From Blasia pusilla (taxonomy: Eukaryota): a stretch of 64,000 bases of DNA. Both the position numbers and the translations under genes were made by a program. Numbering within the stretch: position 1 is the first letter of the stretch; every line of letters starts with the position of its first letter. The stretch spans positions 7,936,001-8,000,000 of the forward strand of contig CM114271.1 of the NCBI GenBank assembly GCA_050084515.1, read 5' to 3'. Shown here one piece after another: positions 1-35,500 of this stretch. The notes beneath the pieces are model-generated. The model had not been told where the DNA came from, did not search any database, and saw only the letters and a list, made by a program, of their open reading frames with translations.

Positions 1-2360
1 TTATACAAACTATCTAATTTGTACCCATCTGAACATGGATCCACAGGATCCTAGATCTTGAACACCTGGAAATTGTGCTCGGGCCGAACGAAGCAGTAAA
101 CGTAGGAGTGGTCCATCTGTAAAGAAGCACATTGGAAACAATGTCAGCAACTTGGCATAATGTGCAACACGTCACCGAAGAAGTCGGCTTGACCCTAGAG
201 AACTTTTTCAATTACTAACTTTGGATCAACCTGTCGGAGTCCGACGGGTTGTTTTGTCCCTGACCAACCCGTCGGAAGGCGACGGGTTGCTGGCCTAGAG
301 CAGCCCATGGTCGTCTAAGAGCAACCCGTCGCTTTCCAACGGGTTGCAGCTTTCCGGAAACACAGGGAAAAACCAAAAGCAACTGCAACCCGTCGGGTTC
401 CGACGGGTTGCAGGTACACCACGGCTTTCCCTGTGTTTCTGGGAAAGATGCAACCCGTCGGAAATTGACGGGTTGCTCTTAGTTGAGCATGGGCTGCTCT
501 AAGCCAACAACCCGTCGCCTTCCGACGGGTTGCTCATGGAGAAAAACAACGGAGATATACTATCTGAAATTTACACGCATTGAGCCTTACCCGAATTTGA
601 AAATATATTTGAGATTGTACTACAGGAATTGAGCCTTACCCGAATCTGACTCGTCGTAGATCGGAGTGGGTACTCGTTTTTTATGATCCACAATTGCGCC
701 GTCCTCCACTTTAGCGACCTCTTGACACATTGGAGGTTGAAGAGCTCGTCCTCGCTCCCTCCAGTCAACACTAAGAAGCAGCCCCTGTCACTCAGATAGG
801 CGTCTGCAAAGGAGAACAATAGCGCGATTTGGTCATAAGAGAGCGGCACATTCCACTCAGGTACCCCGTCCGACGGATTCTCGCCCCACAGTCGCAACCC
901 CGAGGGCAGATCAGCGATCAAGAGATCCACCGCAACCTCTTCGACCACTCCATTCACCGTTCAGGCAGCGTGCCCGTTTCGTTGGAGCTTCCGTCCCAAA
1001 ATTGTCAATTTATCAATAGCTGGTGTCAACGCTTGAGAACTGAAGCTTTTCAGCTCATCCAGTAAAGGAGTGAACTGAAGGAGGACGCTTGTCCGGGTCG
1101 TTGTTTCTCTGTGTCTTCCCAAGGATGATGGACTGTATTCTCCTTGGGACAACACTGGCACCTCTTGCTTCCGCTTTTCCCGAGTCTGCAGACGGCTTGT
1201 CGGGGTCTCTATGACCTCAGACTCTAGTGGGGTTTTTTTCACCAAGGACCTGGTCCGACCCTCTCTCCCCGCTCGCCCGGACGATTCTGCCTCTAGCCTT
1301 GAATCTTCAGCCTCTCTTTGGGAAGACTCGGCCTCGAAATTCTTCCCTCCCCTCGCCTTGCCTTTGAGACCCGTTGTGGATTTGTCTTTGGCTGTGCGGA
1401 CCTTGGAAGCCAACTCAGCTGTCTGGTGGGCTTGCTCTTCTGCATCTCCTCCTCCGAAGTCTTCAAGCTGCACAAAATTGGGGATGTCGTCTTGTCCTGA
1501 GGCCACTGCATCATGAAGCACTCGTAAATCCTTCTCGGTGATGTCTTCAGGGTCGTTGAAGTCAAGCCAAATGGGGCAATTCTCCACCTCCCAATCGGAC
1601 ATGTGTTGCGCCATCTCCATGTCGTACATGGAGAATGTCTCTCCATCAGGTGGCGAAGCCCACAATTTCAAGGCTGTTGGTAATTTTCCCCAGGTACCTG
1701 CATTCTTACAATGGACGAGGTACTTGAAGACCATCCGTTGGGCAACTTTTACTCAAACTGAATCGGCCGTCTGCTCTTGTAGATCTCGCTTCTTCTTTGC
1801 TTGATCCCTTTTGTTCCCATAGATTTCTTCATCAAGCTCTGCCTGAGGGAGGACGCAAACCTTGAACATTGTCTTGAATCCTGGGTTTTTGATTGGCTTG
1901 TCCCGGATGTCGTCGAGGCAAACCTCAAAATCTACAGAATTTTCCAGGTTTGCTTCATCCGGAATGGGCTCTAATCTTTTGAGCTCCGCTTGCAGACCGT
2001 CCAGCAGGGACTTCCCGATAACCCGCAATGCGTCCCAAAACGACCATTCGCGTAGCTAGTGGGAGATCACTGGATCGGACACACCCGGAGGATGGTGTGC
2101 CGCCCTCTTCTGGGCCTCTGTGCCCTCGAGACTGATTTTCATCAGTCGGATCCTCCTAAACTTGCTTATTCCAGACAACGCAAACCGATGCACGCGATCC
2201 AGGGACACTTTCTCCCCAATCCGACCTTGTGGATTTTCATCCCTTTTCCGTTGGCGCTTGATAATCTCCTTCAGCCCCTTGTAAAACTCCGGACCAAGTT
2301 GGGGGTTGAGAATGCTGATGTATCGCTGCATCTTGCTCGTGATGTATTTCGTGGCTGCAG
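1..2360 (-). pseudogene. MULE accessory gene copy 1, 3' part: central region and start of an N6A/N4C MTase-like domain; runs off the window edge
   Basis: ORFs 2056-2406, 1753-2028, 961-1734 and 571-957 align with copy 2 (27850-26116). VDLLIADLPSG (motif IV-like) and GCFLVL are present. Splice donor at 639. In-frame stops. Confidence 0.7.
226..535. repeat. Palindrome cluster (CAACCCGTCGGAnTCCGACGGGTTG family) in an accessory-gene intron
   Basis: e.g. 384-412 tgcaacccgtcgggttccgacgggttgca; about six copies. Confidence 0.95.
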
Positions 2361-2582
2361 ACTCGGGGGTCTCACTTCCACGGAAGAGACCCATCACGTA
2401 CGACAAAGTATAGGGTTTTTAAATTCGATTTTGCGGAAGACTTATAAAGTTTTGTGGAAGAACTTAAGGGTATTTTTAATATATCAAAACGCTTATAATA
2501 AAAATAGAGCATGATTAATTCTTCGTTTGTACATGGAAGCTGTTTAAGAAAGTAAGGGGCAGATAAAAAAATAGGAGACAAA

Positions 2583-3700
2583 ATTTAGGCTTTAGGATTT
2601 TTTTTCCATGTGTGGGTGTTCATTTGAAGTTTTGGTTTTTTCCATGTGTTCGTGGGTTTGGAGTGCCTCTTTGGGAAAAGTTTCATGATTTTTGGAACCA
2701 TGGTTGAGGGGGAGGGGAGAAAAACAGATATCAAGAAGGAAGAGGAGGGCTTCGAGTAGGAATGTTCCAAGTCTTTATTTCATTTTCATGTTCATATTGA
2801 GGTATGTTTGTTTGCAACCATTGGATGGCATTGAAGACCGTTTTTAGGGTTTAAAATTTTTATTTTCATAAGTGGGTATTTATTTGAAGTTTTGACTTTT
2901 TCCCTATGTTCCTAGGCTTGGATTTCCTCTTTGAGAAAAGTTTCATGATTTTTGGAACCCTGGTTGAGGGAGAGGGAAGTAAAAGAGGGGTCAAGAAGGA
3001 AGAGGAGGGCTTTGAGTAGGAATGTTCCAAGTTTTTGTTTCATTTTCATGTTCACATTGAGATCTTTTTTTCAACCATTGGATGGTGTTGACACTTGGAA
3101 AATACCTTGATATTACATCCCTTGCAATCTTCAGTGGTTCAGATCTACGTTTTTGGCTTCCATGCTCAAAAACAAAATATGATACCATTTTTAGGGTTTG
3201 AAATTTTTATTTTCATGTGTGGATGCTCATTTGAAGTTTTGATTTTTTCCATGTGTTCCTGGGCTTGAAATGCCTCTTTGGGATAAGTTTCATGATTTTA
3301 GGAACCCTGGTTGAGGGGAAGGGGAGAAAACGAGGGGTCAAGCGAGGGGTCAAGAAGGAAGAGGAGGGCTACGAGTAGGAATGTTCAAAGTCTTTGTTTC
3401 ATTTTCATGTTAGTATTTAATTCTCTTTTGTTCCAACCATTGGATTGTGTGGAAACTTGGGAGATGCTTTTCAATTAAATTCCTTGCAAACTTCAACGGT
3501 TCAGATGTGCCATTATGGCTCCCATACTTAAACAAAAAGGGAGACGATTTTTAGGGTTTATGACTTTAATCTCCATGTATGGGCGGTCATTTGAAGTCTC
3601 TATGTTCATAGGCTTGGATTGCTTCTTTGAGAAACTTTCTTGGTTTTTTGGGCTTGGATTGATTTTTTGGTTGGAAAAAATTGGATGATTTTTTAATCCC
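2583..3700. repeat. Subterminal tandem repeat, 3-4 units of ~260-360 bp
   Basis: tttagggttt..catttgaagtt..gaggagggc..gagtaggaatgttc recurs at ~2583, 2843, 3190 and (partial) 3550. Confidence 0.85.
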
Positions 3701-6700
3701 TAGCTTATGTGACACGTTGAATTTGATGTGGTAAGGTATGTGGCTTTGGAACATTGGGATTTTTAGGTTATTTTAGTTCAAAATTCCCGCTTTAAAATGT
3801 TAAGTACTCTGCTTTTTTTCTTCCCGACACATCCAAGCCGTAGATCAAACGGATCTATTGTCTCGTTCTAGTCGCATAGTGCGGCCGTGCTTTGGAGCCT
3901 CGTTCGAATCTAGTCTCTCGTTCTAACGTGGGATGCGGCCACGCTTTGGAGCCTTGTTTGGAGCTCTCTTTGCTTAGTGCGGCTGAAATTTCTCACTCTC
4001 TTGTCCTTCAGTTTGGAGATGTGCTTTGCCTTGCGCTGTTGAAATCTCTCTCTCCAGTGTTCCGGTTGCCAATAGAGATTGAAGGTGCTCATTGAATTTT
4101 TTTGCAAGGCAACGGTTTTGCATGAGCGCAGCTCCATACTCTCACCTGGTAAGCTTCAACATTGCTCCCTGCATCAATCTTTTGGGGCCCGCTGATTTTG
4201 ATTTGGAAATGGTGTTGGAGAGTGCTCAACTCACATTTACGTTTCCAATGTTGTCTCTTACGAGAGCTCAAGAGAGCTCTCACGTGAAGTGCCAATCACT
4301 CGAGAGAAGGAGAAGAAACATTCTAGCAGAATCGTTGATGAGGAAGTAAAGCCAAGCTCTGAGATCTGCAACAAACCACGATCAGGTGGGTGTGGCTCGT
4401 ATTCTTGCTCATCGGTTACACTCATGTCTCTATTTTGTTTTGATATGGTCGATTGAGGAGACATTTCTCCGTTGCTTGTGCCATCGTCGCTCATGACAGA
4501 TTCAATGCGTCAAGTCGAATAGATCTAGGTCGGTGTGACACTATACATGCTACTGATGATCTGCTCTGTCCTATTTTTTCCTGCGTCTGTTTTCCACAAA
4601 CCCATGACGCTCGTTTAGGTCTAGCCAGGGCAAACACTTCTCGCAGGCAGATTGGATAGTTCCAGTCATGGGAATTGTATGCATGAACATTACGCAGAGC
4701 GGACTACACACTTCATGTGCACCACATGATCAGATACAAAACAATAGCGCGTAAACAGGCAGAGCCCATGACCCAATCACCATTCGAAATCGACTCTAGC
4801 CTATTCATGAAATTAAAATATTCAGATCACACATGACTTGAGCTGAGCTTATAAAGTTATCTGCTTCAACCAGCTGATCAGCATTGTCCCCCTTCAGAGG
4901 AGCAAGGGTCCCTAATCAAGTCATTCGACACGCTTTCTTTTCTTCATTCAACTCAGCCCTAAATCGACAAAGCTTCCTAAAATGCAGTCTCTGACCTGAA
5001 TTGCAACATTCTCCGACCCCTGTCTCACACACATTTAGTTCCCCGGCTTGCCCAATCGAATCTCGACTATAAGACAATGGGATGTAGTCACAAATGATGG
5101 GAATATGAACACCCACTACCTGTGGATTCTGAAAACTCGAAGACCTACCACAGAGTAATTCTCAGACTCACTAGAACTCACTACCTAGGACTGGGTTGCA
5201 GTCATTGTAAACTTGGTATCACAAAGACAAGTATCCAAACAAGGAAAAGCATGAATGCGCGATTGACGTGGGGAGAGAAACTCACCAGAATATCACAAAA
5301 CAATGACAACTTACATACTCCCTAGACCTTCAACAAGCGGACGATACTGTAGACTCTCTATCTGTTGTAAGGCATGAGAATGCACCCGGATATTTGACAG
5401 AGCAGGCTTCGCTAAAGCTCCTAGACATCTGGGTTTGTGTTTGAAGACTGGGCCGAGGAACATTTCGATCCCACCGACCAACATGGCTGCACCACGTAAC
5501 CCCATCCTCATAAATTTCAGCGATTCCTGGATCTAAAAATTAGTCCAGAGGGTGTCACTCTCTCCAATCCCCCTAAACTTAACCGGACATATCCGTTTCT
5601 TCACCCATAAGTGTAAGTTTTACCAGGTCATCCAAGAATCATCCTCTATCCACAATGATCCTCTTCTTTACACGCAGAGTGCTCCTGCCCCACTGGATTA
5701 CACAAACAGTGATTTTCATGCGGCAATGAGTGCCATCAGAGATGAGCATGCACCAAATTTACCTCAGCTTTGCCTTCCAGCAGAGAGTAGCTCAGACGCT
5801 GTGATGCGCTTACCACCACTCAATCTTCCAGCTGTAAATAACTCGGACGGTGAAATTCGTTCACTAGATGCCCCACTGCTTGCTCTTCCGCTCAAGATCA
5901 CGATACCCGAGTGACAAGTCGAATGGATGAGATTTTCGTTCACAAGAGACCATGTCGGTCTGAGCATCACAATGGATAGTAACCCAATAATCATGTAAGA
6001 TCATAAACTTGTACCCTGTAGGATCTCTGTTCCTATTTTGCCCTAGTAGATACAAATCGTTTTGCAGTTTTGGAACTTCAGGTGAACCAGCTCAGTGGAT
6101 ATGAGCATTCCAGATCACATATTCCCATTTTGAGTGTGACTTTGGAACCAGTCAAAGTATGAAGCACATTTTGCATGACTGTTCACCTTTTGTACAGATT
6201 TCATGCGTAAAGCTTGATGAAGCAAGATTGGTGTCCATCCTCCACTTCATTTATGTGCATGGTCCAACTTAAATTTCTCACTGAGAAAGGAAAGTTGGTT
6301 ACAGGCCGTCTCACATGAAGATGTTTTTCTACTCTGATATTTATGTGTACAACTTGGTAGGTGGGTGACATGAATTTGCACATCTCAACCTTTAGTATTT
6401 TTATCCTCATCTATTTGTTACTGTTTGAAGTTTTACACCATCAGTACCATTCGCTTCGGTAGCTTTGGTGATGCTGCCGCCATGAACGTGCAGACGATCC
6501 GTTAGATGTTTTGAACATCCACGGAAATGTAATTAACATGTCACTGCGCGTAGGAATGGATTAGTGATGGGAAACTGGACCGGTCCTATTTTAGGAGTGT
6601 TGAGATAACTAGGCCGACTTTCACCGTTACTCTGTAGTGTACCACTTGTCCAGCTCGATAAGTGATTTTCCTGATCTGTCAAGATTATCATCAGCTGTTC

Positions 6701-6819
6701 GAAAATCCTATTTGCACCTCAGTTCTGCTCTACTGAGAGAGCAGTGTCCTTACCAGTGTGGCAGCTTTGGGTTTGTGAAGAGAGAGAAAGTATGAATGAA
6801 TGAATGTAGGAGTCATCTG

Positions 6820-7420
6820 TTCATATCCAAGATCATTCAATAAGCTCGTCAACCAGATCACCTCTTGAGCAGCAAGAGAAAGCGCCATGTACTCTGCCTC
6901 AGTTGTAGAGTCTGCTCCAGCTGATCACCCCTCCACTTAACAAGTAGACATATCCACTTGTTGATCTTTTTTCATCAGTATCATCTCCCCAACTTGCATC
7001 TGAGAACCCTTCCAAGATTGGTCCATTTTCTTGATGCATGTATTCCAAGTATGTTCTTGTTGTGCCACGCAAATATCTGAATACTCTCTTCAGACATTTC
7101 CAATGTTCTATTGTAGGTTTTCTGGTGTACCTGGCTAAGACACCAATTGGGTATGCTAAATCTGCTCTGACACCAACCTATGGTCTTTCTACCATGTGGA
7201 AAATCTACAAACTCCCATGTCTCATTTTTCTCTAATGAGACCTTTTCTTCGCCATAGCCTGCTCCCCCTTTGGTTCGAATCATTCATGCTCATAGCCTCA
7301 CTCAAAGAGTTGGGCTCTACAACTCCTTCTTCAATAGCATGAGCTTCATTTATCCCCAACCTTTCTCTGAGTTTGGAAATTTTTCCAGATTTCCTTTGCT
7401 CTAAGATCTCCTTGATCACT
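6820..7420 (-). mobile_element. Ty1/Copia RT-RNase H fragment, internally deleted
   Basis: EPNSLSEAM, KNETWEFVDFPHGRKTIG, HWKCLKRVFRYLRGT, FSDASWGDD..RSTSGY..GGVISW, STTEAEYMAL. Confidence 0.85.
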
Positions 7421-8008
7421 CCCTATGTGGACTCATGTGCTCGAATAACTTGCTTGGCTGCACTTCTAGGTGACCATTTTCAACATGATCTTCCTCTCTT
7501 ACACCTTGGGTGCAAGTATTTGGTAATAGGAATCCTCTATTACACCTTGGGTGCAAGTATCTCTTACACCAAAGACTCTCCGGAGTTGCAAAGTAAATGC
7601 AAATTGTTGAGGTGTCCCATAGAATTGTGCTAGAGATTAGATGAACTTTGGGATTCCTCCGGGAGTGTTTCTTTGATACTCAGTAGATGTAGATTGAAAC
7701 TTCCCTCTAGTCTCAGGCCTTATGTGATGATGAGGCTCAATGGGTGAACAATTCTGGTGTGTTACTAAACGGGGTTTGTGCATATAGGCTAGTGAATGTG
7801 TTGAATAGTTTTGGTGTTACCAAAACTTGTCAGCATAAATCTGATTGCACATGCTGGCATTCTATTTGTGCAGGGCGTATTGAAGGAGACCATAGGGAAG
7901 TGGCTGCCCTATTGGAGGCCATTGGATTTGACAACTAGTGGATTTCTGGTCCTTTTTGCACATCATAGAGAGTCATCGTGGGTGACTATTCTCTACCGTG
8001 GTTAAGAA

Positions 8009-8725
8009 TTGCGTACACACATACACAATGGCGAATGTTCCCCTATTAGATCAATACTCATATGCTTTGAGCATCACCGGATGGATCCCCATCTTCGCTT
8101 TTCTTGTGATGAGGGAGGTGATGTTATATTTTGTGATGGTGCTTGTGGTCGCCATTTTCATTGGATTGGAGGTAGCATGCCCACCAACCCAGATAGTGGC
8201 AAGGGTAAGACGTGCATCCCTGTTGTGCTGCTTAGAAATCACGATTGGAGTGGACCTTGGATATGTGACCTATGTGTTGATGACAGAGCCATTTGTTTCT
8301 CTTGTGGGCTGGTTGGTCGTGTTGTTGGGCATACTGAGTTTGAGACACGACTCATCAAGTGTGCTCACCCGGATTGTTATTCCTTTTATCACCCGGGATG
8401 TGTGAAGACCCGCTTGCTTGTCGGAGGACTCTCGCAGGCTCACCTCGAGGCTCACACAATGCAAAGCCATCTTGTTGCTCCTGATGCACTCATCTGCTCG
8501 CGTCACTATTGTGATGCGTGCAAGATATATCAGGCGGGTATATATGACTTAGTGCAGTGTCGTAGATGCCCCCGTGCTTGGTGTTATGATCAAACCCCAG
8601 GAGGCAAGAGACACCTGCATAAAGGTTGTGATGTTAATGGCATGTGGAATTTTGGTGAGTGGCGACTTGTGTATTGCCGTCGTCATATAATTCCAGAGGG
8701 CCACTCTGTACCTACTTGGGATTAA
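8009..8725 (+). CDS. Tandem PHD-type zinc-finger protein (EDM2/NSD-like), possibly a fragment
   Basis: CDEGGDVIFCDGACGRHFH..WICDLC..CFSCG..IKCAHPDCYSFYHPGCV..CSRHYCDAC..LVQCRRCPRAW. Confidence 0.75.
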   Translation: MRTHIHNGECSPIRSILICFEHHRMDPHLRFSCDEGGDVIFCDGACGRHFHWIGGSMPTNPDSGKGKTCIPVVLLRNHDWSGPWICDLCVDDRAICFSCGLVGRVVGHTEFETRLIKCAHPDCYSFYHPGCVKTRLLVGGLSQAHLEAHTMQSHLVAPDALICSRHYCDACKIYQAGIYDLVQCRRCPRAWCYDQTPGGKRHLHKGCDVNGMWNFGEWRLVYCRRHIIPEGHSVPTWD

Positions 8726-8999
8726 ACCTATATTCGTGTAATTGATGGAAGATCCACTTTAACATCAATTGATTTAGCAAGTTTGGCCACTAGGTTTTGC
8801 GATTTAGGATTGAGGATTTAGAAGAAAATGTTTGCCCCGTGGTGGCTTTAAACGCAATATCTTAAATTAAGGAGGTGACATCAATGTGTATACTCCTATG
8901 GTGTCCAAAATGCTATAACCTCTCACAAAGAATTGCTTTGGATCTGATCTGTGGTGTTGTATTCTCTGTTGTGGTTTGTATAACAGGTTCCTGTGTGTA

Positions 9000-21761: not shown

Positions 21762-22059
21762 AGATGGTCTGCCTCGCAACATTTTTCGATCAAATTCCAA
21801 CCCCATTTTTAGACTTTACCTACTTCATACCCTTCTCTCTACTCAGGGATAAGAAGCTCCCAGAAAAATCAGGCTCCACCTCCCTAGACGACCCTGCCTA
21901 ACCATAGAATGGGCAAAAGCCAGGGATGTTGAGACGATTCTCAAACTCTCACCTCCCTTTGACTCCATAGACGGGACTATGATTTCTCTGGAGAAAAGCA
22001 CACCTTATCTAATTTTTTTCCCCATTCCCACTGCCTGAGCACATAGACCAGTAGATCGA

Positions 22060-24660: not shown

Positions 24661-25841
24661 AATAAAAAGTCTGAGTAGATAAACCAACACAATCGACAAG
24701 ACCAAAAAAGATATTCAGCAAGATTTTACAAACACCATCATGGATCAAAAAATTCTTGTCCTTTATTACATCCGAGGGAAGCTCGGAATTGTTCATTTGA
24801 TCTAGTCTATGATTTCTTCAGCCTCGTAATCTACAAATCTACTCCTAACTCTCCTAGGTTCCTGTACAAAAGGAATGTCTTGGGATACAAGTGGCTCCTC
24901 TAGCCGATTGTAGACGGGGATTGCAAATGTTGGGGAATTCGAGAGCCTTGACCCCCCCCCTACCCCCCCCTAGGTACACCATAACGGTCCCATGTAACCT
25001 TATTTGAGTCTCACCGCCTTCCTCGGCAGTAAATCTTGCATGCTCTGCAAGGTGACACCCATCCACTATCAATATGTGCTCTGTCCTTGGAAACCAATAA
25101 ATCCCTACTCCAAAACGCTTCAGTCAAGTTGGGTCCTTTAGTTCTTTGAACTCACTCGTCATCGTCCGAGAGCTCTTCCATAATTACTGTCGGCCTTGCC
25201 CTCCCGATTTTTGGAATAGTCGGAAGTGACGATGGTGTCATTACCAATAGTGGGTCTGGAACCGGAGCTCTCGGCTTTGGAGGAGATTTGTATGCTCCAA
25301 CTAGCCTGTCGTAATATGCCTTTGCCTCTTTGCAAAGGTCATAAAGTTCTTGCCTTCCCTCAAGGCAGAGAATGTTCCTGCCACTCTGCCAGGCGCCTCT
25401 GATACTCGCCCTTGATAGGCCCACTAAGTCGAACACCAAGTCACCCGGCCTTGAACAGAGCTCGATGAGTGTTTGCATCAAGGCATGGGACTTTTCCCTT
25501 CCTCCAAGTAAGGGGGTCCTGTCTTGCATGTAAATTCCCGGGGGGGGGGGGGGATTTGTATAAACTATTTAAGCTGTACCCATCGGAGCATGGATCGACT
25601 CGATCCAGGATTTGGAACACCTGGAAGTTATGCTCGGGCCTTACAAACTTACAAAATAGTAAACAAAGGAGTGGTCCATGTGTAAAGAAGCAGGTTGGAA
25701 ACAATGTCAGCAAAATGAAAGAGCTACTTGACAAGTGGTCTACTCTCAATATGGTGACACAATGTGCAACACGTCCATAGTGCATTCTAGTCCCTGTTGA
25801 TTGCCAACCCATGAGAACTTGGCCTAAAGTCCTAACAGTAG

Positions 25842-26092
25842 AGCAACCTGTCAGAGTCCAACGGGTTGTTTTACAAGTGTAATTTTTTTTTTCCATGAGC
25901 AACCCGTCGAAAGCCGACATGTTACTGGCTTAGAGCAATCCGTCACTTTCCGACGGCTTGCACTCACTCAATGGAGACTTGTGGTAAATTTGCAACCCGT
26001 CGCTTTCAGACGGATTGCAACACCGTAGCCACAAGCTCTTAGGATCCGATGGGTTGCATGCACAGATGCAACCTGTCGGAGCCCGATGGATG
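25842..26092. repeat. Palindrome cluster in an accessory-gene intron (copy 2)
   Basis: Same intron as 226-535; about six palindromes. Confidence 0.9.
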
Positions 26093-28204
26093 GAATTTGG
26101 ATTAAGAGCCCTTACCCGAACTTGACTCGTCGCCGATCGGAGTGGATACTCATTCTTGATGACCCATGATTGCGTCGTCCTCCACTTCAGCAACCTCTTC
26201 ATGCACTGATGGTTGAAGAGCTCGTCCTTGCTCCCTCCAGTCAAGACCAAGAAACAACCCCTGTCACTCAGATAAGCGTCAACAAAAGAAAACAAGAGCG
26301 CGATCAGGTGATAGGTAAGAGGGACATTCCAGTATAAGACAGTGTCAAGGATTGTTTTCCCACAAGCAAAACCCAGAGGGAAAATCTATGATGAGGAGAT
26401 CCAACGCCACCTCCTCAACCACCCCATGGATCGTCTAAGGAGTGTGCCCGTTTCGTTGAAGTTTTCGTCCCAGCATGGTCAATTTGTCGATGGCGGGTGT
26501 CGACTCCTGGGAACTGAAACTTTGCAGCTCATCCACAAAATTCTTGAAGTGAATGAGGACATTTTTCTTGGTCATTGTTTCTCTATGTCTTCCCAAGGAT
26601 GATGGAGTATATTCCACATCCTTATATGCTCCTCGGGATGAACCACGCGCCTCCCGCTTTTGCTTCTCCTGAGTCTGCAGTCGGCTTGTGGGGGTCTCTA
26701 TAACTTCAGACTCGACTAGAGTTTTCTTGGCGGAGGACCCGGTCCGGCCCTCTCGCCCCACTCGCCCGGACGATTCCGCCTCTCACCTTGAGGTCTCAGC
26801 CTCTTTTCTGGACGAGTCGGCCTCGGAATTCTTAGATCCCCTCGCCTTTCCTTTCAGACCCGCTGTAGATTTGTCCTTGGCGGTGAATACCTTGGAGACC
26901 AACTCCGCTGTCTCGAGGGTTTGCTCCTTTGCATCTCCTTCGAAAAAATCTTCAAGCTGCACGAAATTCAGAATGTCGTCCCTAAACGACCACTGCATCA
27001 TACACCTGGCGTAGATTTTTTTCGGTTATGTCCTCAGGGTCGTTGAAGTCCAACCAGATTGGGCAATTTTCAACCTCCCAATCGGACATGCCCTGTGCCA
27101 TCTCCATGTCGTACATGGAAAATTCCTCTCCATTAGGCGGAGAAGCCCACAATTTGCAGGATGCTGGTATTTTTTGCCAGGTACTTGCATTCTTACAATT
27201 GATGAGGTATCTATACACCATTCGTTGGGTAGCTCTTTGTCGAGATGAATCAGCCCCCTGCTCCTGAAGATCCCGCTTCTTCTTTGTGAAATCTCTTTGT
27301 TTGGCCTCAATTTCTTCATCCAGGCCTGCTTGAGGGAGGATGTGATTCTTCAACATCATCCTAAAGCTTGGGTTTTTCGTGGGCTTGTCTCAGATGTCAT
27401 CAAGCCATAGTTCAAAATCTTCTGCACTCTCGAGGTTTGCTTCCTCCGGAACTGGCTCTATCTTCTTCAGCTCCGCGCGAAGACCCACAAGCATGGACTT
27501 CCCGAGAAGCCGCAACGCGTCCCAGAATGACCATTCACGTAGCCAATGGGAGATCATTGGATCATAAACTCCCGAACGATGGTGTGCCGCCCTCTTTTGG
27601 GCCTCTGTGCCCTTGAGATTGATTTTCATCGATCGGATTCTCCTAAACTCGGAAATTCCAGACAGTGCAAATCTGTGAATGCGGTCCAAAGATACTTTCT
27701 CGCCAATCCAACATTGGATCTTCGTCTCTCTTCTGCTGGCGCTTGATTATCGCCTTGAGCTCCTTGTAGAATTCCGGGCCACGTTCCGAGTTCAAAATGG
27801 CAATGTTGTGCTGCATCTAACTTGCACTGTACTTCGTAGCTGCAGATACTACAGCCTGGATAAACTTTGCACCTTTAGACGCAGACACGTTCTCCCTTCG
27901 CTCCAGTTCCAATGAAGCACTCATCTTGACGGCCTGGATCTTCGACCAACAAAGGATTGTGACGGCTGTATCTTGGGAAATGAAGGTATTTGCCCAAGTC
28001 TTCTTTTTAACTTGAGCCCCTTTTGCCAGCATCTCATTTACCAGATGGTCGCCCAAGAACCCCTTGTTCTCTGTCGGGTGCATCGTAAGCACCTTTTTCA
28101 CCCTCTCGCAATCCTGGATCCAGTGGTGGGTGACGTTCCCCTTGGATATAATCTTGCACATCCAAACTGTCGCGCCCCTACTCTCCTTGAACGTCAATCT
28201 TTAG

Positions 28205-29165
28205 TGTTGCGAAGCATACGTTCACTAGGTCACGATCTCATCGCCGATCTGTACCCAAACACGCACTCTCATTAGTCGGGTCTCGCCAACCAGCGTTCCA
28301 ACCCACCGGGTTCTCAACTCGGCGTCTCATCAAGCTCAACCTTCCTTAGTTCCGAGTTTCCAAAACATGGCAAGTCCTTCAAGACTTGGAACAGACTTCC
28401 TGGTTAGTCCAGAGATCTGCAACGGCACCCGCACGCCTAGCGATCCCAACTGTTCAACGGTCCTCGTGTGAGTTCCAAACCAAGACCCAATTAATTGAGT
28501 CGCGGGGTGGAATCCAAGAGGGATGTCTAAAATCACCTCAATAGACTTGGTGCAGGTTTTCCAACCCAACCCCCAAACTCGCGTTCCGTTCCATGCCCTT
28601 GAGCCGCCCCACGGCGCCCAAAGTGGGGTTCAGGTTCCAAGCACTCTCGGAGACCTTCCCCCTTACTAGTACTTCTGGGTTTCTCCACACCCCCCTTTTG
28701 GAAAAGGAGGGTCGGGCCCTTCATTGTGGCCTTCAACCCGACTCCACTTATAGTCGTTTCCGGGTTTTTTCTCAGCCACTGCTTATGCGTTTGCAAAGGT
28801 CTTTAGTGCATTTGAACTGGCTTTCCACAAGCTTTCCAACGCACTCTTATTCAATCCAAACGCATCTTGGCGCTAAAAGTTATGGTTAAAAATACAGTCG
28901 GAAACTCTCAAACGCTAGTGGCGTTCCAAATCCGGATTCTTCCTTTTGGCAACCCACTTTCTAGACTCGACTTCTTTCAAGTCTCATTCCACGTTTGGTC
29001 CAGGTTTCTTGGTCGCGACCACAACATCTGAAACACGAAGCCTCGCTCGCGTCTCGTCTCTTGTCTCCTCTTCGAGACTACTCCAACGCGCAAACCATCT
29101 TAGCGTGAACCCGCTAATGTTCTGATGTTCCGCTTGGCACTCGTTTGGTCATGAGGGTCGCGACA
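28205..29165. mobile_element. Solo LTR (~960 bp)
   Basis: TG...CA ends with inverted termini TGTTGCGA / TCGCGACA. Absent from copy 1. No matching TSD. Confidence 0.6.
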
Positions 29166-29199
29166 CAAATACACGCTAAGAATTATTGCAAGCTACAGG

Positions 29200-29905
29200 G
29201 TTCCTGCAACCCGTCGAACTCCAACTGGTCGCAACACATGGTTGTCAAAATATAAGCACAGAGAAAAATATTGCAACCCGTCAGGGTTCGACAGGTCGCA
29301 ACACCTTTTTTTCTGTTACACTTATTGCAACACTCACGCAAATTTTTAGCGATAATTGCAACCCATCGGAGTCCGACAGATTGCACCCGGATTTATGATT
29401 GTCTGATTATAACCCGTCAGACTCTGACGGGTTGTAACTCAGAGAATGGTTTCCGAAAAAAAATTGCACATATCAACCCGTCAGAATCCGACAGGTTGCG
29501 CAATTTTTAGTATAGCTGGAATTGGACGCCTAAAAGCAAGCTCTCCTACTCCGACCACCTACCCGTGGTGGCAAATGCAACCTGTGGGAGTCCAAAAAGT
29601 TGCTTTCGGCCAAAAACATCCCAAAAATAGCGAACAATCCATCAACTCATCAGCAACTCGTCAGACTCCGACGAGTTGCTTTAAGGCGTCGGATGATTTG
29701 TTACAACTAGTTTAACAACTCGTTGGAGTCCAACGGTTTGCATAACATATACATCATGCACTCATTTTTACACCCGTCGATGGTGAACTCGTTTCGATAT
29801 CCCGGCTTTCTCTGGTGTGCTTGGCCACCAAGAAACCCGTCGGACTCCGACGGTTTGGTTGAAGCTTTCCAATTATGCAACCCGTCTGACACCGACGGGT
29901 TGAAG
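29200..29905. repeat. Palindrome cluster in an accessory-gene intron (copy 2)
   Basis: Same intron as 14465-15226. Confidence 0.9.
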
Positions 29906-31499
29906 CAATCAAAATTAAGGAAGAGGAAACTTACGTATTCATGGCATGCATTACCATTTCCACCGTTGCCATGTGATGAGGAAATAGATGGAGGACGACT
30001 GCCTTAACGTAAAAATGTGCCTCCAATGAATTTCGGCGATCCTCTACAAACTGGGTCCACGCCATGTACCTGTGGTTTCCATCCCAGATGAAGAAGTAAA
30101 GGTTCCGCATCCAGCTAAATTGCGTCTCCTCAATCGCCCTTCTGAACTCCTGATCTCTCATCCTCCAAAATGTATTGAGCGCTTCCAAGTCCTCTTCCGT
30201 CACCAGCGCTTGGGTTCCATGTTCATCGTAAGGCTCAACATAGAACGGAGGGAAGTTGTCGACGTAGGATGTTGTCGCTGCCAACTGTTTCAACTTTGCA
30301 ATATCCTCCTCCGATTGAATTTCACAGACGTACTCCATTGTCCGCAATCGGCAAAGTGGAATTCTTGGGGCATTTTGGCCCTCCATTAGTGCCATCTGCT
30401 TAACAACCTGCCACAATGGGGACCAAGTCAATAAACTACACTGTTTTGCCAATAAATTTCCTCATGGGCCTTCACATAACTCAAACGTTTCTTACCTACT
30501 CAAAGATTGGGTCGGTGTCTTGGCCCGCCAAGTGCTCTAGGACAGCAAGTGGCAAGTCCACATGAAACTCATCGATCCGATAAAGGTTGATTTCTTCGGC
30601 CGGGCTCAAAGACGAGGAAGATTGTTCTCCTGCTTCTTCAGAGATGTCCACCATCTCCACGCTTGCCATCCTCATGACCTCATCGTCCGTCACTTGAACT
30701 TCGGCCGTTTCCTCAACCGATTTTATATTCATGGTGTCCCCAAACTTCATCGGGAATATTTCCTCCATCTCAACACTCTCTGTTGGACGGGCAAGGCTTT
30801 CTTTGATGGCAATTGCTTTTTCCCTTCGAGCTTTTGCCAATTCTGCTCTCCTCACATACGCGTCTAGACGCTTTTTCTCACGTTTCTCGTCCGCGACTCT
30901 TTTCTTCAAGGCGTGCGATGATTCAGCCTCGGCGTTTTGTTTTTCAAGTGCCTCTAGAACATGTTTTGCAAGAAGCTCATGCATGTGCATATTTGCTTCC
31001 CTTTCCTACTCCTCTATCTCTTGCTGCCTTATCTCATTGGACGAACGAGGCCCTGGAGATGGTAACGCAGGAGTCCTCATGGACTTGGGAGTGATGCTCC
31101 CTACCTTGCTTGCTTGCATTTTTTTCCTCATCATGGTTCCCGTCAATGCTTCCTCCTCGACAGTCTAGACTCTTTCTGTGCACGAAAATTCCCTCAAATG
31201 GTCTCGCGATGAATCGCCGTGACCCTAGATTGTGCACGAAAATTCCCTCGAATGGTCTCTCGATGAATTTCCGTGACCCTAGACCGCCGTGACCGTTTCG
31301 TGATGAAGCGCCCTCATCCTCCTCACCCCCCTTGGTATCTGGTCAGCTGCTGCGCGAAAGAGCACATGAAATCGCGAAACGAAAAATGGAAGTGAGCGAA
31401 ACCTCGGATATTTATACTTTTTGAGCCATTGAGCTTACCGTTGGGTTGCATTGTCGTACTGATGGCGACGTGTTGGCCGTTATGGAACTTTGGACGTGG

Positions 31500-32372
31500 G
31501 AACCCGGCCAACCCCACGGTCTCTGACGGGTTGCAAGCTTCCCGCATCTTGGGGATCCAGGGCGAGTTGCCCAAGAAACTTGTGCGAGACCCATGGGTTG
31601 CACGCATCCGTCCTCCTCGGGTAACAAGCCGAACTACACTGGCAACCCGTTGGAGACCGACAGGTTGCACGCCTCCCCCGTCTTGGGGTAACAACGCGAG
31701 GGACCCGCGCAACCCGTCGGAGACCGGGGGGTTGAACATCTCCCCCGTTTTGGGGTAACAACGCGAGCTACCCGCGCAACCCGTCGGAGGCTGACGGGTT
31801 GCACGCTTCCTTCATGTTGGCATTCCAAGGCGAGGTACCCGTGCAACCCGTCGGAGGTCGACGGGTTGCACGCTTCTCTCATCTTGGGGTTACAAGGAGA
31901 GGCACCCGGGCAACCAGTCGGATACCGAAAGGTTGCACGCTTTTCTCTCCCTCAGGTAAAAATGCGACAAAGCATAGTTCCAAGGCAACCCGTTGCCCTC
32001 CGATGGGTCACAAGGTCTACCCGGAGTTGGACACTTCCCAACATACGGCAAAACTACACTCACGGTTTGCACGGTTAATTGACTAAGAGAAATCGACTCG
32101 AGATGCAAAAGGAAAAGCAAGGTTAGGTACCTTTGGATCCCGTAAAAATCCCCAACGGGTTGCTGTAGCAAATCCATGCGAAGTCTCGTGTTTGATGTTA
32201 GCAATCTCGACTCAAATCACATTGGTCAGAAAAGAAGGGGGTATCAACCCAACGGACTCCGACGGGTTGCAACTCGCATTGGGACACTAACAAAAAATGA
32301 AACTCTGAGCTTCGCAACCCACGTATTTGATTCCCAAATTCTGCAACCTATCGGACTGCGACAGTTCCAACA
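31500..32372. repeat. Palindrome array in the divergent intergenic region
   Basis: Tandem ~65-67 bp units, each with a palindrome (..cttggggtaacaacgcgag..cccgcgcaacccgtcgg..). Confidence 0.9.
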
Positions 32373-32556
32373 CGATTGAATCCATTCCGTCAGAAAATCT
32401 CACCTACCAAACAGCATCTTGTCAGTCAAATTCTGTCAGGAGAATCTAAGTCGCTATTCACTATATATTAAACATTCTCATTCACATTCTCATTCTCATT
32501 CCCATTCTCATTCTTATTCTTAATCTCAGTCTCCTCCCGGTGGAATCTTCTCGAAT

Positions 32557-35500
32557 GGATAATTATGTGAAGCTCACTTGTGGCAGTCATCGAGCGGCCC
32601 TTCCTCAATCAGAAATAATTCGACCATAAGCTTGTGAGTCTTTCATACCAATGGATGAAAATTTTCTCTCAGTTCGATTTCTTCTCCAAATTGGAACCAT
32701 CTTTGTGTCCAAGGATGTTAGGGTGGACAGTACAGAGGACATAATAGGTGAGACAGTCAAGCCAGTGATTGCTGACCGTAAAGTATGGAATCTCCTACCT
32801 CTAGCAAACGATCAATACAGAGTTTACGGCTTGCCTCTGAATTTCTCTGTTTCCCAAGTAGATGGTCGAGAATTTCCTAGTGCACCGAGCTCTACGTTTG
32901 CAACTCTGAGCTCAATAGATCCGGCATCGACTCCAACTTCACATGTTCGTAACAATGTTGTACTTCCTGAAGACATTCCGGATGTCGTCAACCTCAGCCT
33001 ACTCGTTCCTCTTACGAGTATCAGGCAATAGTTTGCTATCGTCTCTGCCCTTTAAAATTTTCAAGCACATTCTTGTCGATGAGGTGCCGCCCACGTACGA
33101 TGGTAATTGCATTTTTGAGTTGCCTCCACTTGCTGCTCCTGCTCAAAAGAAAGATGGTGGACGCTTGAGGGGTATGGACAGAAAGTCTAATTGTCATCGA
33201 TGGTGCAGGCTTCAACGGACTAGTGCTTCAATTCCAGATGGTCCTTGGATTGTCTCCTGCCGCCAATTGGTTGGAGCCTTGGAGTGTAGAAGTCCAGCAT
33301 GCCCGTATCTAGAGCGCAATGGGTGAGTCAATACGTCGCAATTCCCCCCCAAGAATGCAGAAACTCCACATGAGGTCGGTGTGACCATACCACTGGGAGG
33401 CCATCGATGTCCTCATTGTCAAGCATTCCCTTTCTGCGTTGGAGCGTGTCATGCATACATATTTTTCATTGTCCACGACTTCAGTTCTACGTCAGAGTAC
33501 ACAAGGCTGGCAGTTCATGTTGGCTCCCACACTCATCCTGTGACCGGTGCAGAACTTACCAAAGGATCCAAGACTTATGTCTTCAAAATGTCAACGACAG
33601 GACCATCGAGTGGCCTCGATCTTATAGATCGAATGAGGGAAGGGGAAGATCCTTACGACAACTGGATAAGCTTTGATATTTGCTACAGAGTGCTGAATGG
33701 ATGGTTGACCATGGGTGCTCACGTTTATGACCATGTGGAGAAGGGACTCAAAACTATATTTTTTTGTGAAGTAAAAGTAGAAGAGGTTGGCAGTTTGAAG
33801 ATGTGTTGGTTACTCTTTTTGGAGGTGGTGAAGGAAAACAAAAGGTCACCTCTGGAAATTTATGGGTTCATGGCGGACAATGCACAACCTGGGTGGATTG
33901 CTATCAGGGAAGTGTTCTGGGGTGGAGAGGTTCAACCGGAGAGGGAAAGGTCGGATGCTTTCCATTGGCAATAGTCTGTGACCCGGTACACCAAATCTTG
34001 CATCAAGGAGAATAAGAGGACAGAGCATGTCACTCTACTCCAACGCTGCAAGGACATCAAAACCTTGAAACAGGCCATGGAATGCCAAGAAGAACTTCAT
34101 GGGTGGTGGAGGAAGCATGCGCTTGAGGGGAAGTACAAAGAGTTGTGCTCTTGGCTGAGTTGGTGGACTGTACGAATCAGACAGTGGGGAAACTTCATGC
34201 GGCAGGTGAGTTCACTATTTCGTCTTGTCAAGCTCAGGTTGAGAATTATTTGAAAAGTTGTAGCTCAAGATGAGAAGCGTGGGCACTATAGGGATTTCAA
34301 ACCGAAGAAACCAAGCAACTTGTCGGATGCGACAGATTGCCCGGGTGTGCAACCCGTCGGAAACAGACAGGTTGCATCAAGAATCTTGGTGCAACCCGTA
34401 TGCAAGTCGCATGTATACAAGGCATGCAAATAGTTCGACCCGGATGGGTTTCGGATGACTTGCACTTGGATCTTCTAGCCCAGAGTGGCCATAGGTTCTT
34501 GCAACGTGTCAAAATTCGACGGGTTGCAGTAGGTGGTTACTGGGTATTGCAACACGTTGGGACTCGATGGGTCGCAGAGTCATTCATGGGATGCCTTTGA
34601 CTTGCAACCCGTCTGGTTCCGATAGGTAGCTTTTTTCTCTGACTTTGGAGCTATTTTGGTTCCCTTCTCACATTGCCGTCGTTGCAGGGATTGAACATTC
34701 ATGAAAATGTCCGCTGCCCCAACACGAGTGGAGCAGAAAATGTTCATTCCTCCGAGAGGTCATCACAAGCATGCCAAAGAATTTCCCTTGTGGAGGCATG
34801 CCAACAAGACCATGCAAGAGCAATGCTACAGTTTGCAGCATCCCATATCTTCCTCACAAAAGGCATAACGAAAGGAAGGGGGCCTTCGATGTACCTCTAT
34901 GTCAAGGCCGTTGTGAGATTGGGTGATGAGAAACTCTATGTGGAAGCCTTCAATTGGTGCGTAGCAGGAACTCCCCTTGAGCAAGACGTACACATTGGTG
35001 GGGATATTCGTGGGCGCGTTTCAAGACGTCCCATACAGATGGTGGTAGAACAATCCGAGCGAGACTCGTGGAGACCAGATAAGTATCTTGACTTCAGGCA
35101 GGTGAAGAGGCAACATCGAGGAACAAACCCGGTGATTGATTTGGATGAGGAAATCACGCCGCCCAGGTATTCGGAGACCCCGGATTCCTCCCAAATCTGT
35201 GATGCAGTAACTTCTCCAAAATCAGTGAATGTTTTATTTCAAAAGCCCTCCGTTGCTGGAAGTTCACAACATCTGGTCGTTGGGATGGTTCAACAATATG
35301 GGATTCCGGTCATTGAGGTAGATTGCAACCTCAAATGGTGGCATTTATCTCAGAGAAACCCTGGATATGGACCCACTTGCAGGGCAGGATCTGATGGCAT
35401 TAGGAGAGCATGCGGCACTTTCCTAAATAAGAATTGTACAAGGACTAGACGACCATTGCCTGGATTTTGGGGACTCAAAACCTTTGATCGTTTCACGAGG

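Follow-up and report, generated by a model that had tools for sequence, protein, structure and literature searches.

Gene content and state of the two element copies

Two copies (A and B) of one element, ~78–80% identical, are the host sequence of every palindromic unit described below in the 64-kb stretch of DNA that we analyzed (the window). Both copies are broken (Table 1). In copy A, an 11.8-kb insertion splits the accessory gene into 3′ and 5′ parts, the last accessory exon has an in-frame stop and a frameshift, and the transposase segment lies, with respect to the accessory gene, in the opposite orientation to that seen in copy B. The last accessory exon of copy B (25155–25713) is degenerate, DNA N6_N4 methylase-like and frameshifted at a C-run; minus-strand RNA covers it. 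Comparison of A with B yielded a dS of 0.65–1.3 and a dN/dS of 0.11–0.26 in 7/7 exon pairs, indicating that the copies come from long-separated lineages that had been under purifying selection.

The transposase of the element is Mutator-like but very divergent (RNase H-fold, SWIM-like). Exon 33327–33971 has 126 homologs, the best named of which are liverwort proteins, and transposase exons were also matched in metagenome loci. The AlphaFold model reaches a pLDDT of ~90 at residues 80–214 and has RNase H-fold matches, MULE or ZSWIM RNaseH-like proteins are among the named ESM Atlas matches listed, and the SWIM match has an E-value of 0.0047. The accessory gene is an orphan, as the homolog search found none. 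Pfam returned nothing for its ORFs besides weak matches to DUF1015 (E = 6e-4), which we take to be a member of the ParB clan, and N6_N4_Mtase (E = 6.7e-3), both below the curated cut-offs, while ParB_N and DUF3723 were the ESM Atlas leads. In copy B, the ParB-like “DGNHR” exon lies at 29934–30461, and the C-terminal stretch of the protein aligns with N6_N4_Mtase motif I but has lost the glycine loop.

Table 1. Genes of the two element copies and palindrome units, ordered by position in the window
Feature	Position	Strand	Remarks
Accessory gene, copy A, 3′ part	1–2361	−	Cut by window start; 77.5% identity to 26106–27846, 79% to 25556–25713
Array, 3′-most intron, accessory gene, copy A	226–533		6 units; between A/B conserved blocks 1–150 and 631–2361
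Accessory gene, copy A, 5′ part	14143–16441	−	Includes ParB-like exon 15242–15718
Array, middle intron, accessory gene, copy A	14502–15225		11 units; between conserved blocks 14143–14464 and 15226–16441
Array upstream of accessory gene, copy A	16789–17082		5 units, 67-bp period
Transposase fragment, copy A	17548–19513	−	Reverse complement of B 33564–35194; dN/dS 0.14–0.25
Array, transposase intron, copy A	18158–18638		8 units, TRF period 103
Lone cluster, copy B	24253–24658		4 units, 500–900 bp past accessory-gene stop codon; 3′ flank or possible subterminal region
Accessory gene, copy B	25155–31005	−	Several exons; Pfam, ESM Atlas, RNA, dN/dS
Array, 3′-most intron, accessory gene, copy B	25843–26094		6 units, one-to-one with the 6 units of 226–533
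Array, middle intron, accessory gene, copy B	29206–29903		10 units
Array, spacer between divergent accessory and transposase genes, copy B	31508–32270		9 units, 7 at exact 67-bp period
Transposase gene, copy B	32630–36176	+	N-terminal Cys/His-rich part; RNase H-like DDE core 33564–34236; SWIM-like C-terminal exon 35853–36176
Array, transposase intron, copy B	34349–34630		4 units; flanked by conserved blocks (up to 34236 and from 34683)
Single unit	36357–36383		5 mismatches; ~180 bp after stop of copy B transposase ORF

A palindrome confined to the non-coding DNA of the element

The repeated unit is a 27-nt palindrome, GCAACCCGTCGG-N3-CCGACGGGTTGC, with 24 specified arm positions. We found 64 units at ≤7 mismatches of these 24 positions (mean, 3.4), whereas each of 20 mononucleotide shuffles contained 0 to 1, which confirms that the palindrome reported in the earlier note is real; the full 29-nt pattern at ≤3 mismatches gave 12 matches versus 0 in 100 dinucleotide shuffles. 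Each unit carries four CpG and two CCG/CGG sites, in line with the motif having been described as dense in such sites.

All nine clusters previously listed were recovered. The claim that units are absent from exons and other transposable elements (TEs) held. One more unit, downstream of the copy B transposase, lies beyond the range given. Specifically, the 8.15 kb of non-coding DNA of the element hold 64/64 units, compared with none at ≤7 mismatches in its coding-like blocks (11.6 kb) and none in 44.2 kb of other window sequence, four other TEs included; the 11.8-kb insert of copy A, the 1,029-bp nested TE of copy B, a LINE-like stretch and positions 36.5–64 kb are all free of units. Most units (59/64) are internal, i.e., in introns or the intergenic spacer rather than the flanks. 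The clusters are tandem arrays with periods of ~51–127 bp (TRF periods 64/127, 67 and 103), and “intron” is an inferred status, based on A/B conservation, ORFs and homology, because the RNA reads listed include no spliced one.

The 226–533 array is a higher-order palindrome of ~320 bp centered on a perfect unit (385–411), with arms of 104 nt each (252–355 and 442–545) that are 88% complementary. The 3′ part of the copy A middle-intron array is a 64/127-bp tandem repeat, including a higher-order 127-bp repeat with 90% matches at 14821–15124, and the array upstream of the copy A accessory gene aligns with its copy B counterpart in HSPs of 70–77% identity. The remainder of the copy B middle intron (28169–29197) is a nested repeat without which other family copies exist (joint 28168→29198, 333 WGS reads). 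Other family copies also have one extra 73-bp repeat in the transposase-intron array (joint 34622→34550, 89 WGS reads, side 68). On the side of the copy B 3′-intron array, RNA depth falls from 21.5–22 (bin 25251–25667) to 0.17–0.19 (bin 25668–26084). The lone cluster of copy B is part of the repeated family, as its WGS depth is 349–565. Five RNA molecules of run X16 have one of their ends at 24761, near this cluster.

Short, clustered, palindromic units superficially resemble foldback MITEs, and independent MITE or dispersed satellite insertions would account for them in another way. However, direct flanking repeats of at least 4 bp occur at 0/64 units and those of 2–3 bp at chance level, no unit lies in unrelated window sequence, and the WGS depth of the arrays (130–276; transposase intron, 953) stays below that of adjacent exons (451–872; transposase, ~1,400). 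The metagenome, prokaryote and viral collections, scanned for exact occurrences, produced no match either. We therefore regard the MITE or satellite reading as largely refuted and very improbable, as the earlier note had anticipated in arguing against random MITE insertions.

Conservation and decay of the arrays

Arrays persist at 4/4 comparable positions in A and B, and in the 3′-most intron 6/6 units are paired between the copies. The five array positions have only the palindrome in common: spacers are position-specific, with no non-trivial 8-mer common to the spacers of different positions, and at any one position A and B share loop and spacer variants, which implies that no homogenization has taken place between arrays. 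All of our conservation tests carry an ascertainment bias, because units are recognized by their nearness to the consensus; read with this bias, arm columns were more conserved than spacer columns in arrays of constant period, both in the promoter arrays (0.879 vs 0.746, p = 3e-4, 11 units) and in the copy A middle intron (0.925 vs 0.744, p = 1e-4, 5 units). A/B identity was 76.9% at columns where both copies have the motif, 64.7% where either has it and 57.8% at other non-coding columns; the fairest comparison (64.7% vs 57.8%) gives a modest advantage. In the 3′ intron alone, motif-in-either columns reached 77.8% versus 68.5% (p = 0.044), while in the transposase intron they were no better conserved than the rest (91/185 vs 193/380).

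At the same time, C>T or G>A changes account for 141 of 219 differences in the units, and transitions at CpG/CHG columns for 118. The palindrome is thus eroding in both broken copies by methylation-type transitions at CG/CHG. The proposal that the arrays are maintained is moderately supported: equivalent positions despite a dS of 0.65–1.3, arms better conserved than spacers, the modest identity advantage and the arrays of other palindromes in relatives, one of them in the same intron (see below), speak for it.

Could the arrays be functionless minisatellites that propagate themselves? A palindromic seed might expand by slippage, hairpin-primed duplication or gene conversion, growing and staying homogeneous wherever DNA is not under coding constraint, in which case the apparent conservation would reflect concerted evolution plus ascertainment. 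The copy-number variation seen in the 73-bp “goes back” joint, the 127-bp higher-order repeat and the arm-to-arm identity of the long palindrome of copy A (88%), which exceeds the A/B identity of the region, are all consistent with such growth, as are the ordinary tandem repeats in the non-coding DNA of many related loci (see below). Nevertheless, the five positions agree in their arms even though they differ in loop and spacer variants, the 3′-intron units correspond one-to-one across a dS of ~1, and arms outlast spacers within the same repeat units, whereas methylation-type decay should erode a CG-rich motif faster than its spacer, not slower. We consider this explanation unlikely.

Every unit can also form a 12-bp stem, and entire arrays can fold back, so hairpins in RNA or single-stranded DNA, e.g., intronic stem-loops that influence splicing or give rise to small RNAs involved in host silencing or self-regulation, offer another reading. 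In two RNA runs, 11–30 reads contain a unit of the middle-intron type, their ends being loose to either side of 29653–29681, and Sasaki et al. (2023, PMC10398659) describe the non-coding regions of VANDALs as prime RdDM targets. Compensatory arm changes, however, numbered 15 against 11.2 ± 2.9 expected (612 of 5,000 shuffles reach 15), compared with 169 one-sided changes, and arrays also occupy a spacer that looks untranscribed (RNA depth 0–0.43 in the relevant columns, bins 31089–32756). Taken together, these observations make a hairpin role quite improbable.

Different palindromes in related transposase loci

The comparison set consisted of 80 related transposase loci from metagenomes (673 kb), from which the half-site of the window is essentially absent (2 matches at ≤1 mismatch in 673 kb). 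In L001, the closest locus, the orthologous transposase intron contains another palindrome, of 26 bp, three times. A third palindrome occurs upstream of the transposase core, in two arrays that differ in period, in L068 (equal in sequence to L069) and weakly in L042. Overall, a recurrent palindrome was detected at the first threshold in 3/80 loci (L001, L068 and L069, with two distinct sequences), L042 being added at a looser one, and among 11 related loci with coverage of this transposase intron, 1 has a palindrome array there. No homolog of the accessory gene was found among the 80 loci; the arrays of these relatives therefore cannot depend on the accessory protein.

Putative family-specific binding sites and comparison with known systems

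The location and structure of the arrays, the conservation of arms over spacers, the persistence in old lineages and the other palindromes in relatives are observed. On this base we tentatively favor, at somewhat less than even confidence, the reading that each palindrome is a putative symmetric site, of the dimer type, for a protein that the element itself encodes, and that the arrays are comparable to the targets of VANC. The decay of the units in both broken copies, the modest A/B advantage and its lack in the transposase intron, the small share of related loci with arrays and the lack of accessory-gene homologs among them weigh against this reading. We infer such binding; candidate binders would be the Cys/His-rich N-terminal domain of the transposase or the ParB-like/methylase-like accessory protein. 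The arrays may have grown by tandem duplication in introns, the divergent-gene spacer and 3′ flanks, since only there would the coding sequence be unharmed, and we propose that the lineage kept them because dense sites recruit the protein to the promoter and gene bodies of the element. By analogy with VANC/VANDAL21, cognate copies would probably stay transcribed or hypomethylated as a result, and transposase might be assembled there as well; recognition would be specific to the family and would evolve together with the protein.

The units might instead be subterminal (foldback) transposase-binding repeats, as in Muta1 or En/Spm, and serve transposition (end recognition, synapsis) instead of expression. 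Internal arrays would then have arisen from end repeats by inward spread, or would be what is left of ends that were nested or rearranged. Both copy B genes have units in their 3′ flanks, the 226–545 array is itself an inverted repeat of ~320 bp, and Muta1 subterminal repeats strengthen transposase binding and excision (PMC5499845). Nevertheless, internal units predominate and their arrays occupy the same places in both old lineages, and comparing 23300–24300 with 36150–37000 gave no terminal inverted repeat (TIR) but low-complexity matches only, the true ends being undefined in the window. A purely subterminal role thus appears doubtful. According to a preprint (Sasaki et al. 2026, 10.64898/2026.08.24.746577), the AtMu1 transposase not only binds its TIRs but activates cognate copies as well; roles in transposition and expression therefore need not be mutually exclusive.

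Among known systems, the putative binding-site arrays most readily recall VANDAL21, in which motif repeats in the introns of VANC21 and VANB21 and upstream of VANA21 have been tied experimentally to binding (Hosaka 2017, PMC5735166), whereas the palindrome arrays are known from sequence. The likeness to VANDAL21 and VANDAL6 (PMC5735166, PMC10398659) extends to a Mutator-superfamily element with a transposase and accessory gene(s), a family-specific motif in dense tandem repeats whose number varies among copies, its confinement to non-coding parts (accessory introns and sequence upstream of the transposase) and different motifs in related families. VANC targets, in contrast, are asymmetric AT-rich words of 9 or 8 bp in one orientation, and the 24 specified bases of our CG-rich palindrome, far longer than the 9-bp VANC motif, count against the binding-site reading. 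Unlike VANDAL accessory genes, the accessory gene here is an orphan whose ParB-like and methylase-like signals are weak, and the host is apparently a liverwort rather than Arabidopsis.

Muta1 is likewise a MULE with arrays of short repeats. It has a palindromic 10-bp terminal motif and, subterminally, nine repeats of 12 bp that multiply the binding of transposase, with palindromic symmetry being important (Liu and Wessler 2017, PMC5499845). Those 12-bp repeats are direct, lie within 145-bp TIRs and accompany a single terminal palindrome, whereas here the palindrome is itself the repeated unit. Unlike in Muta1, 59 of the 64 units are internal and no TIR was found in the window.

In En/Spm (CACTA), TnpA recognizes 12-bp subterminal motifs. 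That element resembles ours in having an element-encoded regulator with many short motifs, some in inverted pairs, that controls its own expression and methylation state, but it belongs to another superfamily, and its motifs are subterminal rather than intronic and form no long perfect palindrome. Related regulator work is included in the preprint of Sasaki et al. (2026; 10.64898/2026.08.24.746577). Phage and plasmid ParB-methyltransferase fusions and inactive methylase domains in eukaryotic TEs such as DIRS1, covered by Iyer et al. (2015, PMC4738411), parallel the accessory protein, with its ParB-clan-like “DGNHR” exon and motif-I stretch, although in our case both Pfam matches are sub-threshold.

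Distribution and arrangement of the palindrome units

We found 12 matches to the 29-nt pattern in the window at ≤3 mismatches, vs none in 100 dinucleotide shuffles. A scan for the 27-nt palindrome (two 12-nt arms with the 3-nt loop left free) that allowed ≤7 mismatches over the 24 arm positions recovered 64 units, averaging 3.4 mismatches each, compared with 0 or 1 in each of twenty shuffles. All 64 units are non-coding and lie within 8.15 kb of one repeated element, at densities of 6.7 to 9.7 units per kb; none occurred in the coding-like blocks of the element (11.6 kb) or in the 44.2 kb of other window sequence. Specifically, no unit was detected in the 11.8-kb insertion in copy A, the 1,029-bp nested repeat in copy B, the LINE-like stretch, or the rightmost 27.5 kb. 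The earlier note had described nine palindrome clusters that are absent from exons and from other transposable elements; the arm scan returned the same nine and bore out this absence, while adding one single unit.

The units form tandem arrays (TRF periods of 64/127, 67 and 103 bp), mostly spaced 51–83 bp apart, at five positions, namely the 3′-most and middle introns of the accessory gene, the promoter spacer, the transposase intron, and the 3′ flanks, which is a VANC-type layout. The copy A array in the 3′ intron (226–545) is itself a long palindrome of ~320 bp with 104-nt arms that are 88% complementary; this similarity exceeds that between copies A and B in the region, which suggests that one arm was corrected against the other or that a fold-back duplication occurred recently.

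Coordinates and whole-genome sequencing (WGS) depths of features in the window
Feature	Coordinates	Strand	WGS depth	Remarks
Copy A	1–2361 plus 14143–19513
Accessory gene, copy A	1–2361, 14143–16441	minus
NSD-like PHD-finger ORF in 11.8-kb insertion	8006–8722			PF22908, E=2.9e-7
ORFs in 11.8-kb insertion	9610–10776, 11483–12667, 12598–13269			224–395 aa, no Pfam match
Copy B	about 24000–36500
Accessory gene, copy B	31005 down to 25155	minus		multi-exon
Nested repeat in copy B middle intron	28169–29197		~1,090–1,420	1,029 bp, high-copy
Transposase gene, copy B	32630–36176	plus
Single additional unit	36357–36383			outside the range first noted
Whole stretch			130 to about 1,450
3′-intron array			273
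Exons flanking 3′-intron array			872 and 451
Middle-intron array			276
Exon next to middle-intron array			805
Spacer including its array			130–275
Transposase-intron bin (array)			953
Transposase exons			about 1,400

The carrier element and its predicted transposase

Copies A and B are 77–82% identical across coding-like blocks in a self-comparison. In copy B, the accessory and transposase genes are divergent and have a common spacer between them. The transposase segment (17548–19513 in copy A vs 33564–35194 in copy B) is inverted relative to the accessory gene in copy A, where the 5′ and SWIM parts of the transposase are missing.

The core exon of the transposase had 126 homologues in a library of 1.8 billion proteins, with the top named ones coming from the liverworts Calypogeia fissa and Riccia sorocarpa. 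An AlphaFold model based on 30 sequences reached a pLDDT of ~90 at residues 80–214 and matched RNase H-fold integrase/transposase cores; its PDB matches include the ISCth4 transposase (rank 24), which we take to be a member of the IS256 family. The ten best named ESM Atlas hits of the transposase homologue P0007 all belonged to one family or clan, with MULE / ZSWIM RNaseH-like among those listed, and the layout of D...D and C.FH motifs was seen by eye in alignment A1. The last exon (35853–36176), conserved in 21 related loci, matched the SWIM model (PF04434) with E=0.0047 and 16.9 bits, below the cut-off of 19.6. Hallmarks of MULEs are a DDE core, a C-terminal SWIM zinc finger, long terminal inverted repeats, and target-site duplications of 8–11 bp. 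The Pfam MULE model matched neither the window exon nor any of the homologues scanned (13/13), for which the Pfam scan yielded 0 families altogether, and a profile of the transposase alignment had 0 matches among PDB sequences. No inverted repeat was found between the flanks of copy B, both of which adjoin LINE-like sequence, and the element ends are undefined within the window. Because the MULE model went unmatched, we call the predicted product of the plus-strand gene a very divergent Mutator-like transposase, on the basis of homology and the fold model, and not a proven MULE.

The window holds other mobile sequences as well. The 11.8-kb insertion (2362–14142), which contains 0 palindromes and splits copy A of the accessory gene, is probably another, unclassified transposon. 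Further remains (19514–23429, 36500–38300, 38208–38996 and 53906–54748) are an ORF for a reverse transcriptase (RVT_1, E=1.4e-15), LINE-like sequence that adjoins copy B on its right side, the zinc-binding domain of a Gypsy-type integrase, and an ORF with a weak zf-BED match. The CpG observed/expected ratio was 0.39–0.63 in the other mobile-element remains vs 0.81–1.17 in array-bearing non-coding DNA.

Origin of the arrays and size of the family

The earlier note had argued against random MITE insertions, and our results agree, leaving independent insertion of the units as MITEs highly improbable. Target-site duplications, sought as identical direct flanks of 4–9 bp (4, 5, 8 and 9 bp at three offsets), were present at 0/64 units, and flank matches of 2–3 bp were at chance level. 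There were also no units outside the host element in the window and no excess of WGS depth, and the exact palindrome had 0 matches in each of the metagenome, prokaryote-genome and viral collections, which is weak evidence given how little plant DNA they hold. The spacers of arrays at different positions have no non-trivial 8-mer in common, while loop and spacer variants are common to A and B at equivalent positions; in the 3′ intron, six A units pair one to one with six B units. A second motif, AACAAGGCG, that by eye seemed common to the spacers of two array types found no support when 8-mers were compared.

The WGS depths (summed; 1% of one run with the same species label, mapped on copy B at ≥85% likeness) indicate that the family has many copies. 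Array bins were not over-represented, which counts against an independent satellite, with the caveat that fast-diverging arrays lose reads at the 85% threshold. In 333 reads, 28168 was joined to 29198 with 21 other letters, including a palindrome half-site; the extra kilobase in the copy B intron is thus a nested repeat that most family copies lack. Another 89 reads show that in other copies the transposase-intron array is longer by one 73-bp repeat. Joints at palindrome units ("opposite strands" and a 2,610-bp "skip") were considered as rearrangements; their shorter side (26–29 letters) is the unit itself, so we took them as alignment artefacts of the palindrome.

In two RNA runs, the accessory last exon and 3′ UTR (24761–25713) had a depth of 22–36, in an orientation that fits minus-strand RNA, vs about 0–7 for the upstream exons. 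This excess could be due to 3′ bias, to truncated copies being abundant, or to a separate transcript whose start lies just below the 3′-intron array. Plus-strand depth over the transposase gene was 2–17. Because no spliced reads were among the RNA alignments listed for copy B, the intron boundaries are drawn from conservation, ORFs and homology. A further 30–36 reads per run matched the ParB-like exon at 30317–30349 (33 nt) only and continued into unrelated sequence at either end; apparently, an unrelated transcript shares this short segment.

Conservation and erosion of the arrays

Exon pairs of the two copies (n = 7) displayed a dS of 0.65–1.3 and a dN/dS of 0.11–0.26, and the lineages were therefore long separated and kept under protein-level selection. 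Arrays persist at all four comparable A/B positions. We restricted the comparison of arms with spacers to constant-period arrays, in which each repeat unit has arms as old as its spacer. Arm columns were more conserved both in the promoter arrays (11 units; 0.879 vs 0.746, p=3e-4) and in the middle-intron array of copy A (5 units; 0.925 vs 0.744, p=1e-4). Between copies, identity was 76.9% where both keep the motif, a value inflated by ascertainment, and 64.7% in the fairer comparison, where either copy has it, vs 57.8% in other non-coding columns, which is a modest difference; in the transposase intron, motif and remaining sequence did not differ in A-vs-B identity.

Both window copies are dead. 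Copy A is broken by the 11.8-kb insert, the inversion and, within its last exon, a stop plus a frameshift; copy B is broken by a frameshift at a C-run. Among 219 differences in the units, 141 are C>T/G>A, and 118 of these are transitions at CpG/CHG columns, the signature expected of methylated, silenced copies. The proposal in the earlier note that the clusters are a maintained array, to be checked by comparing motif and spacer between copies, thus holds in part: equivalent positions, arms better conserved than spacers, and an overall gain in A-vs-B identity speak for it, while the small size of that gain, its absence from the transposase intron, and the ongoing erosion of units limit it or speak against it. 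We consider it unlikely that the arrays are functionless, self-propagating minisatellites, and very unlikely that the units act as hairpin or small-RNA elements. Compensatory arm changes (15 observed vs 11.2 ± 2.9 in shuffles) lend no support to a hairpin.

Palindrome arrays near related transposases

A profile scan of metagenome contigs yielded 383 loci encoding relatives of the transposase, of which 80 (673 kb) were kept. The window half-site is essentially absent from these (2 matches at ≤1 mismatch). Two other kinds of palindrome were found instead, each ~26 bp and arrayed. The nearest locus (L001; 41% identity) carries a different 26-bp palindrome three times (at 1105, 1189 and 1279), with one copy sitting inside a 60-bp palindrome. 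These lie within the intron between the exons homologous to window positions 33327–34236 and 34643–35764, i.e., the same intron that hosts the copy B array at 34349–34630. A third palindrome forms two arrays, with periods of 51 and ~127 bp, in L068 (identical in sequence to L069) and, more weakly, in L042 and L041, 1.2–6.7 kb upstream of the transposase core; here the pattern of one palindrome in several arrays with different spacers is repeated. Such arrays are infrequent: only 1/11 loci covering the intron has one there, and recurrent palindromes were detected in 3/80 loci at the first threshold (two distinct sequences), with L042 added at a looser one. No accessory-gene homologue was detectable in any of the 80 loci.

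Related loci are also rich in ordinary AT-rich tandem repeats (e.g., a 25-bp unit repeated 21.6 times at 17426–17965 of L068), indicating that non-coding DNA in this group commonly forms tandem repeats, whether or not palindromes are involved.

The accessory gene

Around its DGNHR motif, the accessory gene weakly matched DUF1015 (E=6e-4 in copy B and 0.032 in copy A), presumably a ParB-clan family. A second weak match, to N6_N4_Mtase (E=6.7e-3), covers profile positions 165–220 only, which is the C-terminal motif-I region of these methylases. By eye, the gene combines a ParB-like DGNHR exon with an apparent, degenerate beta-class DNA-methylase module. As a reference, an intact methylase has a catalytic (D/S)PP(Y/F) motif and an FxGxG SAM loop, and a ParB-type domain has a DGxHR-like motif; in the methylase-like stretch, the glycine loop is lost by eye (LVGLSRAS instead of FxGxG) and DPED stands for DPPY. 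The ESM Atlas offered ParB_N as a lead, found in 11% of one cluster, and the fold model of the ParB-like exon had a pLDDT of 43.7. Word-based searches returned no homologues of this exon (modes "longer" and "near") or of the 374-aa transposase ORF, and in a tblastn search of all element ORFs against the 80 related loci only transposase exons were matched. By sequence comparison, the accessory gene thus appears to be an orphan. Liverworts are reported, in the preprint by Walker et al. 2021, to have prokaryote-type N4-cytosine methylases.

A possible role for the arrays

The best-supported reading, which we hold tentatively, is that the arrays are symmetric, putative binding sites for an element-encoded protein. 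The arrays would be built by tandem duplication wherever coding constraint permits, and would be retained because densely packed sites draw that protein to the promoter and the gene bodies. As the accessory gene is missing from the array-bearing relatives, the transposase would be the more economical candidate binder, and the ParB-like/dead-methylase protein the more novel one; we infer both the identity of the binder and the effect of binding. The units could instead be subterminal repeats of the transposition type, a reading we consider unlikely.

Comparison with known systems

To our knowledge, sequence-specific anti-silencing by transposons is experimentally known only from the Arabidopsis VANDAL, Spm and AtMu1 elements. 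Accessory proteins of the VANC family carry DUF1985. Hosaka 2017 (PMC5735166) describes VANC21 as binding YAGTATTAY, which is tandem-arrayed upstream of VANA21 and within introns of VANC21 and VANB21, and as removing methylation locally, with other motifs in related families. A preprint (Sasaki et al. 2026, 10.64898/2026.08.24.746577) attributes the same local effect, at the AtMu1 TIRs, to the AtMu1 transposase alone, and work on Muta1 (Liu and Wessler 2017, PMC5499845) shows that binding by MULE transposases relies on arrayed repeats and palindromic symmetry.

A bolder and rather improbable proposal is that a bryophyte Mutator-like lineage independently evolved VANC-like self-recognition, with each family having its own ~26–27-bp palindrome arrayed through introns and promoter. 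In the Blasia family, the orphan accessory protein would act as the reader; it would join a ParB-like domain to a catalytically dead beta-class DNA-methylase module whose recognition of CG/CCG-rich sites would shield cognate copies from silencing. Keyword searches of open-access text listed no account of liverwort Mutator-like elements with palindrome arrays, nor of a MULE with a ParB/methylase gene. Apart from this proposal, a liverwort-type Mutator-like family that shares the non-coding motif-array layout, yet has a long CG-rich palindrome and an unrelated accessory gene, would suggest that the motif-array strategy is ancient in land plants or has arisen there repeatedly; a directly testable pair, the 27-bp site and two candidate proteins, would follow, and the palindromes differing among related families would be a natural experiment on the co-evolution of transposon proteins and their sites.

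The closest experimentally grounded model is VANDAL21, which the Blasia element resembles in its architecture of non-coding motif arrays. It differs in that no VANC-type domain was found in the accessory ORFs of both copies, which match only DUF1015 and N6_N4_Mtase, weakly, in Pfam; the Blasia motif is a long, CG-rich palindrome, whereas the VANC motif is short, asymmetric and AT-rich, and the host of the palindrome element appears to be a liverwort. By analogy, the Blasia arrays may work like a VANC-target system without being a member of it.
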